Shown here piece by piece: positions 31,747 to 58,475 of a DNA stretch of 64,000 nucleotides (positions within the stretch are counted from its first letter, which is position 1; every line of letters begins with the position of its first letter). A program made the position numbers and the translations under genes. A model generated the notes under the pieces. It worked only from the letters and a program-made list of their open reading frames with translations. It was not told the DNA's origin and made no database searches. This DNA comes from Escherichia phage alia. The stretch lies in the sequence record NC_052655.1. One strand, 5' to 3'.

Positions 31747-34566
31747 ATGTATCCTATTCCTTTATTTATGTCAACAACATCAGCTTCAGTAGTAACAGCT
31801 ACATCTATAACTACTTCCTCTATTGGTATTGCAATAGTTGGTGGTAAAAAACAACTGACATACACAGTTACACCGGAAGATGGTGCATTATTTGATATAG
31901 CTTTTTCATCTTCAGATAATACCAAAATGGTTATAGATAATAGTGGTATGATGGAGTTTGTTGCCGAAGGTGGTTTTGATGCAATAATGACAGCTAAAAA
32001 TAATTTAGGTGCTGTCTTAACTGATCAATCTGGTGGTTATGCTTCAGAATTAAGTGTGTACACTGAAAGTCTATCGGCTATGGATGTAGGCACTACTCAA
32101 CAGTTGGTTGCTACAATCAGTCCAGAAGGTGCTAAAGACCTTCCAGATATGGTAATTACATACACCACAACAGATCCAGAAGTAGCTACTGTAAGCCCTA
32201 CAGGGTTAATAACTGCTCTTAAAGATGGCGGTTGCCGTATAGGTTGTACTGCAACGTATCAAGGAACAGTTGTGGCCTCTGATAGTTCTTATTTAGGTGT
32301 TAATGCTATTCCTGTTATTTCTAATGTAACAGCCGTGGCAAACAGCTATGGAGACGTTCGTGTTGCTTGGGATGTAGCTGATCCGCTAGACGGTGATACT
32401 TATACTGTAGAAGTATTAGATTTAAGTGATAATAGTGTCCAGTGGACTACAACAACCACGAATACTTACGCCTATTTTGATATCTCTGACTCTATTCCTC
32501 TTTATGGGTTTGCTCCAACATACCTTAAAATTAATGTTAAGAGCACCAAAGCAGCAGCCGTTATCTTTAATAACTCAATAGCTACAGATGATTCATTCAT
32601 TAAAGAAGTTATTGTCTTTGCTGGACAAGATAACGTAAATGCACACTTTACAGAACTATCTGGTGCAAATAAAGCAGCAATGGGTAGCACAACAGCCCGT
32701 AATGCATATGCTACGCAACGTGGTTTAGCAAATGCTGAAGTTCTTCCGTTAAATACAGCTTCTGGATCATCAGCAGCAGATAAATATGCTGACGATAAAG
32801 CTGGAACAGGTACACCAGATAACTACTGGTATGATCTGGATAACACAGCAGATGGGCCATGCTTAACTAACTTTATCACTAAAGTCACACCTTATGCAAG
32901 TAAGGTTAAAGCGATTATTTGGGGACAAGGTGAAAATGATGCTGTATCAGCATCTTCTACTGTTGCAGGTAGGTACAGTAACACTACACGTTACCATGAT
33001 GCTACGATAGCCATCTTTGATAAGATGCGTACAATAGTTCCTGCTTCTCAAGCAAAAATTGTTTGGCAGATCCTAGGACGTTCTTATTTATATGGTGTAG
33101 AAGTTAATGGTGTGGATTGGCAGAAGTACAGAAATGTACAAAGAACCATCTCTACAGCACGTGATGATGTTATCATTGGTTCTTGGGTAGATGGTGCTGA
33201 ACGTTACAGTGGTTATGTTTATGAAGAAGGTATTGATGGTCGTATCCATTATGTTTCTTCTGTATACCAAACAGCAGCTACAAAACTTGCTAAATCAGCA
33301 GCAGACGGTACAGACTTAACATCAACGTCACCTGTTTGGGTTGATATGGCTGTTCCAACTGGAGCAACAGCTACTTCCCAACCTAATCAAGATACAATTT
33401 TAGCATGGGATGCTCAAGGCTATAGTAAACACTACTTCCGTAATATTAACGTCTTAACTGCATCTGTATTAACTGAACAAACGCTTAATACGAACAGTTA
33501 TACGTTTACCTATGCAGATCAAGTAGAACAATATGGTTTTGCAGCAGGAACTACTATATTTGATGTTGCATATTATGACGAAGCAAATGATGTGTTATCT
33601 CCTTTAGTACGTTTTAATGTTAACGTTACAGCAGGAACCGTAGAAGATAAACCTGTCGTGATGGACTATGATTTGACGCAAGAAACTCTTCCATCAGATG
33701 TTAAGGTTAATGGTGGGAACTCTTTTGCTCGTGCTTCTGGAGATAAACTTGTAGCCACTAACACCTTGGTTGCTCCGTTGGAGTATGTTGGTACTACCCC
33801 TGTAGGTAGACGTGTAACAGCTAACACAGCTACACAAATTTTTGTCAACAACGCCTTAACAAGCGCAAGCCCGTGGATAAAGACCAAATTAACTGTTGCA
33901 GCTTCATCTGATAACTCTCCGGCTGGAACTACTGCTAATGTATTCAAATTAACTCCGACTACAACCTCTGGTAGTCATATCTTAACTGCAACATATACTA
34001 ACGCGTACAACATATCTGCCGGACGTAACTGGTCTGCCTCTGTTTTCTTGAAAGCGAACGGGATTACTAAGGCCAAACTAAGATTAAAAGCAGGAACTGA
34101 AGTTAATGAGGGTACTTTTGATTTAGCAGCAGGTACATTCACAGGAAGTGAAGCTAATATTATATCTATGGGCAACGGTTGGTATCGTGCTATTCTGCAT
34201 AAAACAGGGATAGCCAAACAGTCCTCCATAAGTTTTGAAATAATTGCCTTGGATGCAACTGGTGCGGAGATTTTCGCTGGAGATGGTACTAGTAACCTTG
34301 CAGTTTGGTTGCCACAGCTTGAAGGTGCTTCTACAGGAGAAACATCAAAAGCTGGATCGCCTTATGTCTGCATATATCCTGGAAATTTAGGAGGAGTATC
34401 CTTCACTATACCAAGGAACGGACATACTGGTGTGGATGTTTACTATTCCAACGGAGACGTTGTTCGTGACGTATTCTCTGGTACGGCATCTACTTGGACA
34501 ATAAACTACTCCAGCTTGTACGATTGGGGATCAGTCTTTATTACAGGTTTGAAATATTACGACTAA
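31747..34566 (+). CDS. tail fibre protein with Ig-like domains and SGNH/SASA-like esterase domain
   Basis: 939 aa; N-terminal bacterial Ig-like (BIG2-type) segments; motifs IVFAGQDNVNAHF and AIIWGQGENDA resemble the GQSN and W.QGE.. motifs of sialate O-acetylesterase-like SGNH hydrolases. Confidence 0.55.
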   Translation: MYPIPLFMSTTSASVVTATSITTSSIGIAIVGGKKQLTYTVTPEDGALFDIAFSSSDNTKMVIDNSGMMEFVAEGGFDAIMTAKNNLGAVLTDQSGGYASELSVYTESLSAMDVGTTQQLVATISPEGAKDLPDMVITYTTTDPEVATVSPTGLITALKDGGCRIGCTATYQGTVVASDSSYLGVNAIPVISNVTAVANSYGDVRVAWDVADPLDGDTYTVEVLDLSDNSVQWTTTTTNTYAYFDISDSIPLYGFAPTYLKINVKSTKAAAVIFNNSIATDDSFIKEVIVFAGQDNVNAHFTELSGANKAAMGSTTARNAYATQRGLANAEVLPLNTASGSSAADKYADDKAGTGTPDNYWYDLDNTADGPCLTNFITKVTPYASKVKAIIWGQGENDAVSASSTVAGRYSNTTRYHDATIAIFDKMRTIVPASQAKIVWQILGRSYLYGVEVNGVDWQKYRNVQRTISTARDDVIIGSWVDGAERYSGYVYEEGIDGRIHYVSSVYQTAATKLAKSAADGTDLTSTSPVWVDMAVPTGATATSQPNQDTILAWDAQGYSKHYFRNINVLTASVLTEQTLNTNSYTFTYADQVEQYGFAAGTTIFDVAYYDEANDVLSPLVRFNVNVTAGTVEDKPVVMDYDLTQETLPSDVKVNGGNSFARASGDKLVATNTLVAPLEYVGTTPVGRRVTANTATQIFVNNALTSASPWIKTKLTVAASSDNSPAGTTANVFKLTPTTTSGSHILTATYTNAYNISAGRNWSASVFLKANGITKAKLRLKAGTEVNEGTFDLAAGTFTGSEANIISMGNGWYRAILHKTGIAKQSSISFEIIALDATGAEIFAGDGTSNLAVWLPQLEGASTGETSKAGSPYVCIYPGNLGGVSFTIPRNGHTGVDVYYSNGDVVRDVFSGTASTWTINYSSLYDWGSVFITGLKYYD

Positions 34567-34567
34567 T

Positions 34568-34594
34568 AAAAAAGGAGCCATTAGGCTCCTTTTC
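34568..34594. terminator. bidirectional intrinsic terminator at strand switch
   Basis: A-tract (34568-34573), GGAGCC-ATTA-GGCTCC stem, T-tract (34590-34594), between convergent gene ends at 34566 (+) and 34602 (-). Confidence 0.75.
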
Positions 34595-34601
34595 TTTTAT
34601 C

Positions 34602-35033
34602 TTAGTCAGTGAAAATTACGCTTACATCTTCTTTAGAAAAGAGTTTATGATCTTCACCTTTTGTCTCAAGAGTTTCATACAGGTTAAGAAGTTCTGAAAC
34701 ATCTTTCTCTACCAGTTTCTTCAATGTTGCAATTTTCTGTTTGCGACTCTTAATACGTTCAGCTACAACCTTACGCTGGTATCCGGCAGTACGATAACCT
34801 GAGAAAGTTACACCAGTGAGACTTGCAGTTACAGGATCGTAGTGACGTTCAATCTGAAATTTATTAAAAGGTACAGCGTCATCACGAATAATCTTACCGC
34901 CATTACTTACTTGACGAAGACCAGTAACTTGTTCCAGTCGTGCCATAGAAATCTTTGGAGACAGACCAGAGTCCAGGTTCATACCGTTGTTAATCAGTGC
35001 TTTCAGGGTGATTTTGCTGTTCAGTGTACTCAT
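34602..35033 (-). CDS. hypothetical protein
   Basis: 143 aa; ATG at 35033 preceded by GGAGGAA; overlaps the 3' end of the methyltransferase gene by 44 nt in another frame. Confidence 0.55.
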   Translation of the reverse strand: MSTLNSKITLKALINNGMNLDSGLSPKISMARLEQVTGLRQVSNGGKIIRDDAVPFNKFQIERHYDPVTASLTGVTFSGYRTAGYQRKVVAERIKSRKQKIATLKKLVEKDVSELLNLYETLETKGEDHKLFSKEDVSVIFTD

Positions 35034-35721
35034 TTAGTCGTTCCTCCGCTTGCTTAAAAATATTTACATCGGCTTCACAGCCTAAGTATTCTCTACCTGT
35101 TAAAAGTGCCGCAACTTGTGTTGTTGCACTTCCAGAGAAGAAGTCTAAGACTACATCTCCTTCGTTGGTGTGTATATTAATAAGGTCACAAAACAAAGTC
35201 AAGTGTTTTTGTGTTGGATGAAAACGATCTGCTCCTTGATAGATAGGATACTCAAACACACCCTTATGGTAGGAAGCATTGAAGGTTGGCTTCGAACCTT
35301 TAACACAAACAATAGCCATCTCTTTAGCGTTACTAAGATAGTTAACACCACTGTTGATGGGTACAGGGTTTGTTTTAATCCATTCGATAGTACGGAACAT
35401 ACGAAAACCAAGTGGTTCAAGGATTTCACGTAGTTCTTGGATCTTCCAGATATCATACCAAACGATGCAAGTACCACCTTTTCTAAGCACCCTGTAGGCT
35501 TCTTTGAATACTTCTTTAAAGTAAGGAATATCTACAACATCCCAATCACCAAAGTTGTAAGATACACGGAATCTATCCGTATCTTTTCCAGTCGGCTCTC
35601 CAGATTGAAAATTTGTGTCACGAGAAATAGCATATGGTGGGTCAGTAAGAATCAAATCTACACTATTGCTTTCGAGGGTTTGCAGGTAGTTTAATGCGGT
35701 GTTGTTTACAAATTCGCTCAT
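34990..35721 (-). CDS. DNA methyltransferase (N6-adenine / N4-cytosine type, permuted beta-class)
   Basis: 243 aa; motif IV DPPY near the N-terminus (LILTDPPYA) and AdoMet-binding motif I near the C-terminus (VLDFFSGSATT); AAGGAGA SD. Confidence 0.8.
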   Translation of the reverse strand: MSEFVNNTALNYLQTLESNSVDLILTDPPYAISRDTNFQSGEPTGKDTDRFRVSYNFGDWDVVDIPYFKEVFKEAYRVLRKGGTCIVWYDIWKIQELREILEPLGFRMFRTIEWIKTNPVPINSGVNYLSNAKEMAIVCVKGSKPTFNASYHKGVFEYPIYQGADRFHPTQKHLTLFCDLINIHTNEGDVVLDFFSGSATTQVAALLTGREYLGCEADVNIFKQAEERLNEYTEQQNHPESTD

Positions 35722-35737
35722 TATATCTCCTTCAAAG

Positions 35738-35759
35738 AAAAGGAGCCGTTAGGCTCCTT
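35738..35759 (-). terminator. hairpin terminator; second copy of the GGAGCC hairpin
   Basis: AAAA-GGAGCC-GTTA-GGCTCC-TT, 21/22 identical to the hairpin at 34570-34591. On the minus strand it follows the SSB-like gene and is followed by a T-rich run. Confidence 0.55.
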
Positions 35760-35781
35760 ATATTCACACAATATTTAACTA

Positions 35782-36729
35782 TTAGAAACAGTGCAGGAAG
35801 TTTCGACCATACTGCAAACCAATAGGAGCAAATGGGATATCATCATCGAAATCTTGAACAACAGGTTCTGGTTCTTTCGGTGCTGGCTCTTTCTTCTCTA
35901 CTTTTTTAGTTTCTTTCTTAACTTCTTGTACCGGGGTAGACATTCCACGGATAGCAGCAGCTACTTTATCAGACAAAGCAAGAACTTCACGAGCAGCTTC
36001 AATAATCTCTTCTGCCGTTACAGTTTTACCTGTATGATCACGACAAGCGTTAAGAATTGCGTGTCCAACTGAAGCACCAAGATCATAGTCAGTCACATCA
36101 ACGCCACGATCTTTAGCAATTTCTGCTTTCAGAGTAACAGTTGCAGATTGTACCACACCAGCCAAGTCGAAAGCATCACCTTTCACACCAGCACGTAGAA
36201 GCTCCAGAGCGCCGTTTACAGCGTGTCCTGTTTCAATCCCTACGGTATCACGTTTTTTGTAGTTAGGCTTGCTACCTTCGTTATTAGATGGCTTATTTCC
36301 ACCTTTTGAAGAAGATTGTGCTTGCTGAACACCTTCTGTTGAAAGAATAGTGATTTTACCTTTAGAGGAATTGTAGTATGTTTTGCCATTCCATTCAGAA
36401 GGTTTAACATCCATAGTTAGTTCTACACCTTTTTCGATAGTAACCCACTTATCACCATCTTTAACTTGCAGGTTTTCATGTTCTGGGTGCAGTTTAACTT
36501 CACCTAGGCTAACCCAAACACCTTTATCATCAGCACCAGCACCTTTCTCTTTAATAAGCAGGGATGCTTTGTGAGTTGATTCAATTTTCTTATCTGGCTG
36601 ACCTGCAACCTTAATATAAGAGACTTTCATTTCATCAAACTTATCCAGTTTGACATATTCAACGATACCTTCAGCCCAGAATGCTTCTTTTTTAGTACGA
36701 CGGTCGATTTCAGAATTAATTACTGGCAT
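35782..36729 (-). CDS. putative ssDNA-binding protein with SSB-like acidic motif (DFDDDIPF)
   Basis: 315 aa; DFDDDIPF matches the E. coli SSB C-terminal tip but here is followed by 15 more residues (APIGLQYGRNFLHCF); Lys/Pro/Glu-rich linker precedes it. Confidence 0.45.
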   Translation of the reverse strand: MPVINSEIDRRTKKEAFWAEGIVEYVKLDKFDEMKVSYIKVAGQPDKKIESTHKASLLIKEKGAGADDKGVWVSLGEVKLHPEHENLQVKDGDKWVTIEKGVELTMDVKPSEWNGKTYYNSSKGKITILSTEGVQQAQSSSKGGNKPSNNEGSKPNYKKRDTVGIETGHAVNGALELLRAGVKGDAFDLAGVVQSATVTLKAEIAKDRGVDVTDYDLGASVGHAILNACRDHTGKTVTAEEIIEAAREVLALSDKVAAAIRGMSTPVQEVKKETKKVEKKEPAPKEPEPVVQDFDDDIPFAPIGLQYGRNFLHCF

Positions 36730-37144: not shown

Positions 37145-37187
37145 TCAAGTCCTCATAATAACACATAATTATAATGTTTGTCAACAC

Positions 37188-58441: not shown

Positions 58442-58447
58442 ATAAAT

Positions 58448-58469
58448 AAAGGAGGCTTTCGCCTCCTTT
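58448..58469 (-). terminator. intrinsic terminator after ATPase gene (GAAA loop on minus strand)
   Basis: AAAGGAGGC-TTTC-GCCTCCTTT on the plus strand; on the minus strand it is followed by ATTTATA. Confidence 0.5.
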
Positions 58470-58475
58470 TATCAC

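Follow-up and report, generated by a model that had tools for sequence, protein, structure and literature searches.

Near-identical hairpins around a DNA methyltransferase gene pair of Escherichia phage alia: probable terminators flanking a presumably disarmed, IceA-like cassette

Morons are extra genes that carry their own promoter and terminator and lie between conserved phage genes, as in lambdoid phages such as HK97. Loops that flip back and forth between the arms of an inverted repeat (hairpin-loop inversion) occur in chloroplast non-coding DNA and can result from template switching at quasi-palindromes. Among phage methyltransferases, orphan enzymes have been reviewed by Murphy et al. 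2013 (cited in PMC12210895), and in Helicobacter pylori iceA1 and hpyIM constitute an NlaIII-like restriction-modification system specific for CATG (PMC13340068). Here we analyze a locus of Escherichia phage alia (NC_052655.1) that we compare with all of these systems: a DNA methyltransferase (methylase) gene and an overlapping gene for a homologue of gp154 (hereafter gp154), enclosed by two near-identical hairpins. The window is the whole stretch of 64,000 nucleotides (nt) that was analyzed; L numbers are our handles for genomes and contigs, and P numbers those for proteins.

We consider it most probable (roughly 70%) that the hairpins are terminators of two converging transcription blocks, that their likeness goes back to an old local duplication, and that the genes between them are ancient, disarmed cargo. 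Hairpin 1 would be a bidirectional terminator where the plus-strand block ending in the tail gene meets the minus-strand replication block, and hairpin 2 a terminator following the gene of a single-stranded DNA-binding (SSB)-like protein. Transcripts that start at an upstream promoter and read through hairpin 2 would most likely supply methylase and gp154, in smaller amounts than the SSB-like protein, with gp154 translation probably coupled to that of the methylase via a 44-nt overlap. The likeness of the hairpins may reflect an old local (inverted) duplication or the homogenization of one junction terminator, on a stem that is common in phages. The cargo, in turn, would be an anciently acquired, genus-fixed module from an NlaIII/IceA-type type II restriction-modification system, in which gp154 kept the N-terminal domain of the endonuclease, lost its Cys/His nuclease module and gained a long helix. 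The features concerned are as follows (window coordinates; aa, amino acids; ORF, open reading frame).

31747–34566, plus strand: gene of a tail protein of receptor-binding type (939 aa), last of the plus-strand late block; ORF with a Big_2 domain, annotated as tail protein or lateral tail fibre in relatives.
34570–34593, both strands: hairpin 1, putative bidirectional intrinsic terminator at the convergent junction; AAAAGGAGCC-ATTA-GGCTCCTTTT, 10-bp stem, T-tracts on both strands.
34602–35033, minus strand: gp154 homologue (143 aa) with a predicted IceA/NlaIII-type N-terminal domain (winged-helix-like), a long helix at residues 83–125 and no nuclease module.
34990–35721, minus strand: beta-class N6/N4 DNA methyltransferase (243 aa) that contains a DPPY motif; the 3' end of the gene overlaps the start of gp154 by 44 nt.
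35727–35732, minus strand: Shine-Dalgarno (SD) sequence AAGGAG of the methylase, 5 nt upstream of the ATG; read from the sequence and annotated as ribosome-binding site (RBS) in phi92.
35740–35759, minus strand: hairpin 2, putative intrinsic terminator or attenuator after the SSB-like gene; AAGGAGCC-TAAC-GGCTCCTT, then TTCTTTG; 8-bp stem.
35782–36729, minus strand: SSB-like protein (phi92 gp156; 315 aa); ORF with single-stranded DNA-binding annotation in several records.
37155–37184, minus strand: best sigma-70-like candidate promoter, TTGACA-18-TATTAT (11/12, with TG), upstream of the two genes that precede hairpin 2; consensus scan only.

An earlier note on this DNA, made from the letters alone, had pointed out the hairpins and read them as boundaries of a self-contained methylase unit. 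Its description of the locus holds. The two 22-nt elements, AAAAGGAGCCATTAGGCTCCTT at 34570–34591 and AAAAGGAGCCGTTAGGCTCCTT at 35738–35759, are identical at 21 of 22 positions and differ in the loop only; at up to 3 mismatches they are the sole copies in the window (0 expected in shuffles). ORF and domain calls confirmed that the 1146 bases between the hairpins hold nothing but the 243-aa PF01555 methylase and the 143-aa ORF, overlapping by 44 nt. The proposal that one copy is the bidirectional terminator at the strand switch also fits hairpin 1, which lies between convergent genes and is followed by U-tracts on both strands.

Both hairpins have the sequence hallmarks of intrinsic terminators, namely a G+C-rich stem-loop with a U-rich tract 3' of the stem just past a stop codon, and the record of phage Paula lists the two of them as terminators. 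Hairpin 1, part of a conserved element of ~38 nt (34563–34601), is placed between the stop codons of the plus-strand tail gene and the minus-strand gp154 gene; the latter stop is 8 nt away, so that the gene pair has a putative terminator directly downstream. Predicted folding energies of the hairpin-1 RNA are −15.7 kcal/mol (z = −4.0) for the plus strand and −19.1 kcal/mol (z = −5.8) for the minus strand. Hairpin 2 folds with −14.7 kcal/mol on the minus strand, and z ranges from −3.1 to −5.8 over all hairpin folds. It carries a U-tract on the minus strand only (TTTTCTTTG), 22 nt past the stop codon of the SSB-like gene, and sits directly upstream of the methylase RBS, with ~17 nt (RBS included) to the methylase start codon. 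We read both hairpins as ordinary intrinsic terminators of a phi92-like phage and not as insertion scars. In an Rfam scan of 34300–36000, the terminator hairpins drew only sub-threshold matches of small RNA models, and no known RNA family was found. The right arm of hairpin 2 (CTCCTT) could also pair weakly with the methylase SD sequence AAGGAG 7 nt downstream (35727–35757, minus strand); this alternative pairing is far weaker than the terminator stem and probably a trivial outcome of the SD-like left arm.

A consensus scan, which is blind to phage-specific promoters, detected no sigma-70-type promoter in the ~17 nt between hairpin 2 and the methylase start. As no promoter was detectable and the RBS and start codon follow hairpin 2 within this distance, expression of methylase and gp154 would depend on read-through, and the candidate promoter at 37155–37184 is the likely source of the transcripts that reach hairpin 2.

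To place the locus among its relatives, we compared the junction between SSB and tail genes, anchored on the SSB-like gene, and consulted annotated records. The window region is 98–99% identical to phi92-like coliphages of the genus Justusliebigvirus (Stephanstirmvirinae), among them Antha, ALITA, Paula and phi92. Phages of the Phapecoctavirus type (ESCO13, L012) have the tail gene, a single hairpin and the SSB gene, with no cargo; the hairpin has the flanks seen in the window and a compensatory pair change (GGGAACC/GGTTCCC versus GGGAGCC/GGCTCCC). L014 likewise has no cargo and a single hairpin, here with the GGGAGCC stem. In ZCKP1, a hairpin identical to hairpin 1 of the window is followed by an HNH endonuclease gene and then, with no hairpin 2, by the SSB gene; methylase and gp154 are missing.

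The most informative pair is L011 and L013. In L011, the SSB stop codon is followed by hairpin A (GGAGCC-GAAA-GGCTCC-TTTTCTTTTG), hairpin B (AAAGGAGCC-TTTC-GGCTCC-TTTTTTATTT) and the tail gene, the two hairpins lying about 20–30 nt apart with no cargo between them. L013 equals L011 plus a unit of ~520 bp exactly between the hairpins, which consists of a TTGACG-17-TAATAT promoter, an RBS and a gp154 homologue (39% identity). Its hairpin A is the reverse complement of hairpin B over 25 contiguous nt, loop and T-tail included, which marks the twin hairpins as back-to-back terminators, one per incoming operon. L010 has the L013 layout plus an extra HNH gene at the SSB stop codon. Since both hairpins are present at the empty site of L011 and around gp154 alone in L013, they are independent of the methylase. 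We searched L013, L010, L011, ZCKP1, ESCO13 and J2-1 for methylase remnants and found none. The 5' leader of the L013 gp154 gene resembles the 3' end of the methylase ORF; we judged this to be coincidental (AG-rich RBS), because the Pfam methylase domain reaches within ~8 nt of the gp154 start. A promoter-like TTGACT-17-TAATAT also occurs inside the methylase ORF of the window (35174–35202, minus strand), ~140 nt upstream of the gp154 start; its −10 hexamer is the same as that of the L013 gp154 promoter, and it could allow gp154 expression independent of the methylase.

Two metagenomic contigs, L140 and L141, share the gene order of the window (SSB-like gene, methylase, gp154, convergent tail gene). 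Their methylases are 81% and 80% identical to that of the window and their SSB-like proteins 54% and 75%. The stem after the SSB gene is AAGGAGCC-TAAC in Justusliebigvirus, AAGGGGC-TTCG-GCCCCTT in L140, GGGGCT-GAAA-AGCCCC in L141 and AAGGGAGCC-GAAA in L013, and the junction hairpin on the tail side of L140 and L141 is of the GGGAGCCTC or GGGAACCTC type. A terminator at this position is thus conserved in structure and not in sequence, which argues for function, and the occurrence of the same gene order with unlike hairpins makes hairpin likeness a property of particular lineages, not of the module.

These comparisons decide what remains of the interpretation given in the earlier note. Hairpins that arose as duplicated boundaries of a methylase insertion, or that delimit it, do not agree with their joint presence at the empty L011 site or with the same cargo between unlike hairpins in L140 and L141. 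A moron-type unit is borne out by the terminator downstream (hairpin 1) but not by a sigma-70-type promoter of its own upstream of the methylase, and we therefore do not count it as a classical moron. The "direct orientation" of the copies stands in part. The stem is its own reverse complement, so that orientation is carried by loop and flanks only and the term is not a robust description. On the plus strand, the loops ATTA (hairpin 1) and GTTA (hairpin 2) favor the direct register, and nothing but these 4 nt does so; in the inverted register, which suits the flanks, the copies share AAAGAAAAGGAGCC plus GGCTCCTT (22 positions) and have their T-tails (TTTTCTTT) on opposite strands. Hairpin 2 is invariant among nine Justusliebigvirus genomes. 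The loop of hairpin 1 (window 34580–34583; same site in L008, L009 and L138) reads TAAT, ATTA, AATA or TATT in near-identical genomes, that is, two reverse-complement pairs. From the sequences, this looks like repeated flipping between palindromic arms, and such flips mean that direct orientation is not a stable property either.

To assess how unusual two like hairpins are, genome-wide counts were taken from the complete genome of Antha (145,329 bp), a phage 99% identical to the window. The GGAGCC stem is confined to the two methylase-flanking sites, so it is not a terminator used at many unrelated places of this genome, a test the earlier note had set; yet it is common across phages. The stem AAGGAGCC-N4-GGCTCCTT was found in at least 120 IMG/VR viral contigs, mostly with GAAA/TTTC or TTCG/CGAA loops, and directly after ssb genes ending in ...DDIPF in ~9 of 120 sampled viral contigs. 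Our census of Antha gave ~21 terminator-like hairpins in ~10 stem families that recur at unrelated places: AAAGGGGC-TTTC-GCCCCTTT at five scattered sites (e.g. 2029, 63100, 73956, 122987 and 136073), AAACCCGC-TTCG-GCGGGTTT at three, and AAGCCCC-TTCG-GGGGCTT at three to four. Because the genome reuses its terminator stems in this way, adjacent like pairs are to be expected: permuting the family order along the genome predicted 2.0 adjacent same-family pairs where 3 were observed (P = 0.32), with a probability of 0.90 that one or more such pairs arise. The likeness of the two hairpins is hence beyond chance relative to random sequence, but not relative to the terminator background of the genome. 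Terminator families of exactly the same sequence at scattered Antha sites could reflect convergence on optimal stems as well as copying between sites. A third bidirectional hairpin at 58447–58470 of the window, AAAGGAGGC-GAAA-GCCTCCTTT, is the nearest relative of the pair within the window (5 mismatches).

This background raises the question of whether any duplication is needed. Two independent terminators, drawn by convergence from a small repertoire of favored stems, would be in line with a stem shared by at least 120 unrelated viral contigs, with recurrent scattered families whose adjacent pairs are no commoner than chance, and with the other stems found at the hairpin-2 position of L140 and L141. 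We nevertheless regard convergence as a somewhat unlikely explanation. Besides the stem, the A-rich flank (AAAGAAAAGG) and the T-tail (TTTTCTTT) are alike as well, the match in L013 runs through the loop for 25 contiguous nt, and the loops TAAC and TAAT are rare, unlike the common GAAA and TTCG, yet differ from each other by one base.

The surroundings of hairpin 1 bear on a further alternative. The tail gene varies among Justusliebigvirus genomes, and in many records homology to the window begins only at or shortly before hairpin 1 (34522, 34553 or 34569); the tail-gene end beyond hairpin 1 is of two unrelated kinds in different genomes. Going by these alignments, hairpin 1 is a homology breakpoint and the boundary for tail-gene exchange. 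The hairpin-1 element is also present in ZCKP1, L013 and the Tlsvirus phSE-5. The extended element TAATAAAAAAGGAGCC-N4-GGCTCCTTTTCTTTTAT (window 34563–34601, L004 2500–2540) is identical except for the loop in Tlsvirus (T1-like, Drexlerviridae), where it likewise lies between the tail-fibre gene and ssb. The comparison as a whole supports a view of the interval between SSB-like and tail gene as a variable cargo slot between related genera: the methylase unit is absent from ESCO13, an HNH gene takes its place in ZCKP1, gp154 is present in L013 and not in L011, and all 54 Justusliebigvirus records examined have the complete unit. The two HNH-type endonuclease genes at this junction differ from each other (ZCKP1, L002 3198–3605; L010, 4906–5412), and the start codon of the L010 gene shares bases with the stop codon of the SSB gene (TGATG). 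Homing-type genes seem to be drawn to this junction.

One could therefore picture the hairpins as portable homology, with terminator elements of 22–38 nt serving as recombination substrates for the exchange of cargo and tail genes. Cargo that differs among relatives exactly at the hairpins, tail-gene breakpoints at hairpin 1, the mosaic of ZCKP1 (SSB 3' end, hairpin 1 and tail-gene end resembling those of Justusliebigvirus, on the backbone of a Phapecoctavirus) and the conservation of GATAAAAGAAAAGGAGCC-N4-GGCTCCTTTTTTATTA, except for the loop, at the same tail-fibre/ssb junction of Tlsvirus (Drexlerviridae) would all agree with it. We identified no recombinant with a hybrid hairpin, however, 22–38 nt is short for homologous recombination, the methylase pair bears no sign of recent exchange, and breakpoints at gene ends are expected in any case, since selection removes recombinants that break genes. 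On balance, we think this role improbable. What survives of a recombination-delimited module, as the earlier note had put it, is the variable slot and the tail-swap breakpoint; the cassette itself, carried by every one of the 54 records, gives no sign of current mobility.

A moron-type or transposon-like insertion of the methylase unit, with the hairpins as duplicated target or boundary, is very unlikely: although the copies are 21/22 identical, the stem occurs nowhere else in the 145-kb genome and Phapecoctavirus relatives without the unit have a single hairpin at the junction, the twin hairpins of L011 and L013, the unlike hairpins of L140 and L141, the module elsewhere without hairpins in the two flanks inspected, the missing internal promoter, the lack of polymorphism in 54 genomes, the absence of a transposase, integrase or homing enzyme, and the ambiguous orientation with its flipping loop all speak against it.

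We now turn to the cargo of the terminator-flanked slot. The methylase matched PF01555 with 106.9 bits (cutoff 26.7; E = 1.9e-30; residues 21–227), and its translation contains the catalytic DPPY motif (...LILTDPPYA...) and the S-adenosylmethionine (AdoMet)-binding FxGxG motif (...DFFSGSATT...). Further matches were phrog_67 and the PADLOC model MTase_II (1.5e-46), and the nearest solved structures are the adenine methyltransferases 5hek and 5hfj (1e-28). As a PF01555 enzyme it would methylate adenine or N4-cytosine; CATG as its motif is a guess from an IceA-linked bacterial relative. Four genes are annotated as DNA methyltransferases in the genome of Antha.

For gp154, direct family searches (Pfam, NCBIfam, PADLOC and PDB sequences) gave no match, and a Foldseek search against the PDB gave none below E = 0.26. 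Weaker signals came from a viral structure library, in which gp154 matched a protein annotated as ICEA1 (probability 0.85), and from PF05315, which was touched by only 2 of 60 gp154-family members (E ~0.03). The decisive link was obtained with a gp154 profile in a HMMER search of 1.84 billion representatives. This search yielded 46 clusters, almost all of 100–143 aa, plus P0270 (206 aa) at E = 6.3e-7, which is a PF05315 protein (61 bits, cutoff 24). Alignment of the gp154 profile with P0270 by hhalign reached a probability of 97.2% (E = 3.4e-11; 37% identity over 65 columns; gp154 residues 15–80). When gp154 was aligned with the IceA protein of L150 alone, hhalign gave an unusable result (probability 1%, E = 0.053), so the link is solid only via P0270.

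Across the gp154 and IceA groups, N44, G45, R50 and G79 are invariant. In the joint alignment, P0270 and the L150 IceA protein carry a C-terminal Cys/His module (DHKxGR ... CN ... KRExCKxC ... CxGCYWYD), which we take to resemble an HNH-type nuclease motif; gp154 and every other family member examined have a long helix at their end and entirely lack this module. The genomic context points in the same direction, as the gene after that of P0072, a bacterial methylase with 57% identity to the one of the phage, encodes a PF05315 (IceA) protein of 245 aa. On the strength of these profile comparisons, gp154 is homologous to the N-terminal domain of IceA/NlaIII-type endonucleases and has no counterpart of the nuclease module. 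The N-terminal domain is probably DNA-recognizing and the long helix probably dimerizing. Three very long proteins, P0249 (3257 aa), P0265 (1801 aa) and P0277 (1674 aa), matched the gp154 profile in 10–22 separate stretches each, which could be a repeated domain or helix, or low-complexity artefacts.

The methylase and an overlapping gp154 occur together in 10 of 10 phage-type contexts examined (L140–L149), eight of them in unrelated neighborhoods. The latter (L142–L149) were assembled from methylase homologues at 61–72% identity and from independently picked members of the gp154 family; in each, the methylase is directly followed by an overlapping gp154 homologue of 128–137 aa. Neighboring genes encode thymidylate synthase, dihydrofolate reductase, ribonucleotide reductase, PhoH, RNase H-like and other proteins. 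No hairpins flank the pair in the two contexts whose flanking DNA was inspected (L142 and L143), so the unit is not always enclosed by hairpins, an outcome that the earlier note had itself named as contradicting its reading; in the other six, the gene tables place the pair tightly between neighboring genes. Each of the 54 Justusliebigvirus records has the methylase, with an identity of no less than 99%; the next phage homologue in that comparison is 34% identical, and gp154 was found in 54 records as well. The cassette is fixed in the genus and shows no sign of current mobility, and neither a transposase nor an integrase nor a homing enzyme was found in the methylase-gp154 unit.

These sequence relationships make a disarmed restriction-modification pair the best reading of the cassette. 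It does not qualify as an active type II system, as the partner has no nuclease module and PADLOC found no match for gp154, but resembles a relic of one. More tentatively, and with considerable doubt, we propose that methylase and gp154 represent an undescribed class of "disarmed" restriction-modification pairs that is selected in many large virulent phages. In such a class, gp154 might bind the target site (possibly CATG), either to counter restriction, by shielding sites or by poisoning host enzymes of its own endonuclease family, or to target or regulate the methylase as one of its subunits. The lone gp154 gene behind a sigma-70-type promoter in L013 would fit a function of its own. A literature search returned nothing relevant on this hairpin pair or on a truncated IceA-like partner in phages, which is not proof of novelty.

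Several observations weigh against the explanation as a whole or against its parts. The twin GGAGCC state is found in Justusliebigvirus and in the clade of L011 and L013, but not in L141, which has the closest SSB-like protein (75%); a duplication in the common ancestor would thus require later replacement in some lineages. The IceA link depends on one full-length protein (P0270), a short one (P0276) and a single bacterial neighborhood, and gp154 itself stays under every Pfam threshold, with no match to PF05315 at E up to 10. A second methylase homologue of 57% identity, P0070, adjoins neither IceA nor gp154; the 50-aa ORF that follows it was tested as a gp154 remnant and is not one. As to a protective role, the BASEL study found phi92-like phages to be "exceptionally susceptible" to the restriction systems tested (PMC8594841), so any such role must be narrow. 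CATG is moreover depleted in Antha (observed/expected (O/E) ratio 0.54), which is not what full self-protection at CATG predicts. Taken together, sensitivity and depletion make a simple, broad protective role unlikely, while CATG depletion as evidence on CATG specificity is not decisive either way. Among the 4-base palindromes of Antha, GGCC (O/E 0.36) and CATG are the most depleted, and GATC is not depleted (1.01).

The SSB-like protein that precedes hairpin 2 has features of its own. Its C-terminus consists of the canonical ...DFDDDIPF tip and a 15-aa extension, APIGLQYGRNFLHCF (encoded at 35785–35829), whereas its relatives in L140, L141, L013, L011, L014 and ESCO13 end exactly at ...IPF. 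This tip is the partner-binding end of bacterial SSB and would be buried by the extension. In ZCKP1, an SSB protein otherwise identical to that of ESCO13 bears the same extension, which suggests recombination. Four GenBank records labeled "Campylobacter phage" with C. jejuni as host (MG065645, MG065689, MG065639 and MG065656) are ~98.5% identical here to phi92-like phages of E. coli, and this similarity suggests that they are mislabeled or contaminated.

As ordinary terminators, the hairpins themselves are of small significance. They do offer a caution: where phages reuse a few terminator stems, near-identical short hairpins around a gene are expected by chance. The greater interest lies in gp154, which belongs to a conserved but unannotated family (at least 290 proteins in 46 clusters at 50% identity) that is tightly coupled to a methylase in several unrelated phage lineages. 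Should gp154 bind the recognition site, it would be a simple new way for a phage to handle restriction or to steer its own methylation, and naming it would give a name to a gene carried by every phi92-like phage that is a therapeutic candidate.

Compared with described systems, both hairpins resemble Rho-independent terminators in their G+C-rich stems of 8–10 bp, their tetraloops, the A-tract before and the U-tract after the stem, and their position directly after stop codons; they are unlike them only in the stem and flanks shared between neighbors and in the loop of hairpin 1, which occurs in both orientations. They also recall bidirectional and intra-operon attenuating terminators, hairpin 1 in serving both strands and hairpin 2 in lying between the gene of an abundant product (the SSB-like protein) and that of a catalytic one (the methylase). 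Hairpin-1 loops that read TAAT/ATTA and AATA/TATT in otherwise near-identical genomes resemble hairpin-loop inversions, except that the site here is a phage terminator and a handful of genomes was sampled. The closest counterpart of a moron is the gp154 unit of L013, with terminator, promoter, RBS, gene and terminator in a row and precisely absent from L011. The unit of the window differs from morons in having no detectable promoter of its own, because the methylase ORF occupies the segment of the L013 promoter, in being fixed in the genus, and in residing in a virulent, not a temperate, phage.

With NlaIII and IceA1-M.HpyI, the CATG-specific systems of a PF05315 endonuclease and an adenine methylase, the cassette shares a methylase 57% identical to a bacterial one adjacent to PF05315, a partner homologous to the N-terminal 65–85 residues of PF05315 proteins, the order of methylase then partner, and their tight linkage. 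In contrast to these systems, gp154 has a long helix in place of the C-terminal Cys/His module, the genes overlap, and the genomes that host them are those of virulent phages. Orphan phage methyltransferases, which are generally assumed to protect phage DNA from host restriction, resemble the methylase of the window in having no active cognate endonuclease. Such orphans are usually seen as having simply lost the endonuclease; here the non-catalytic half has been kept, and with this conserved remnant of a partner endonuclease the methylase is not truly solitary.

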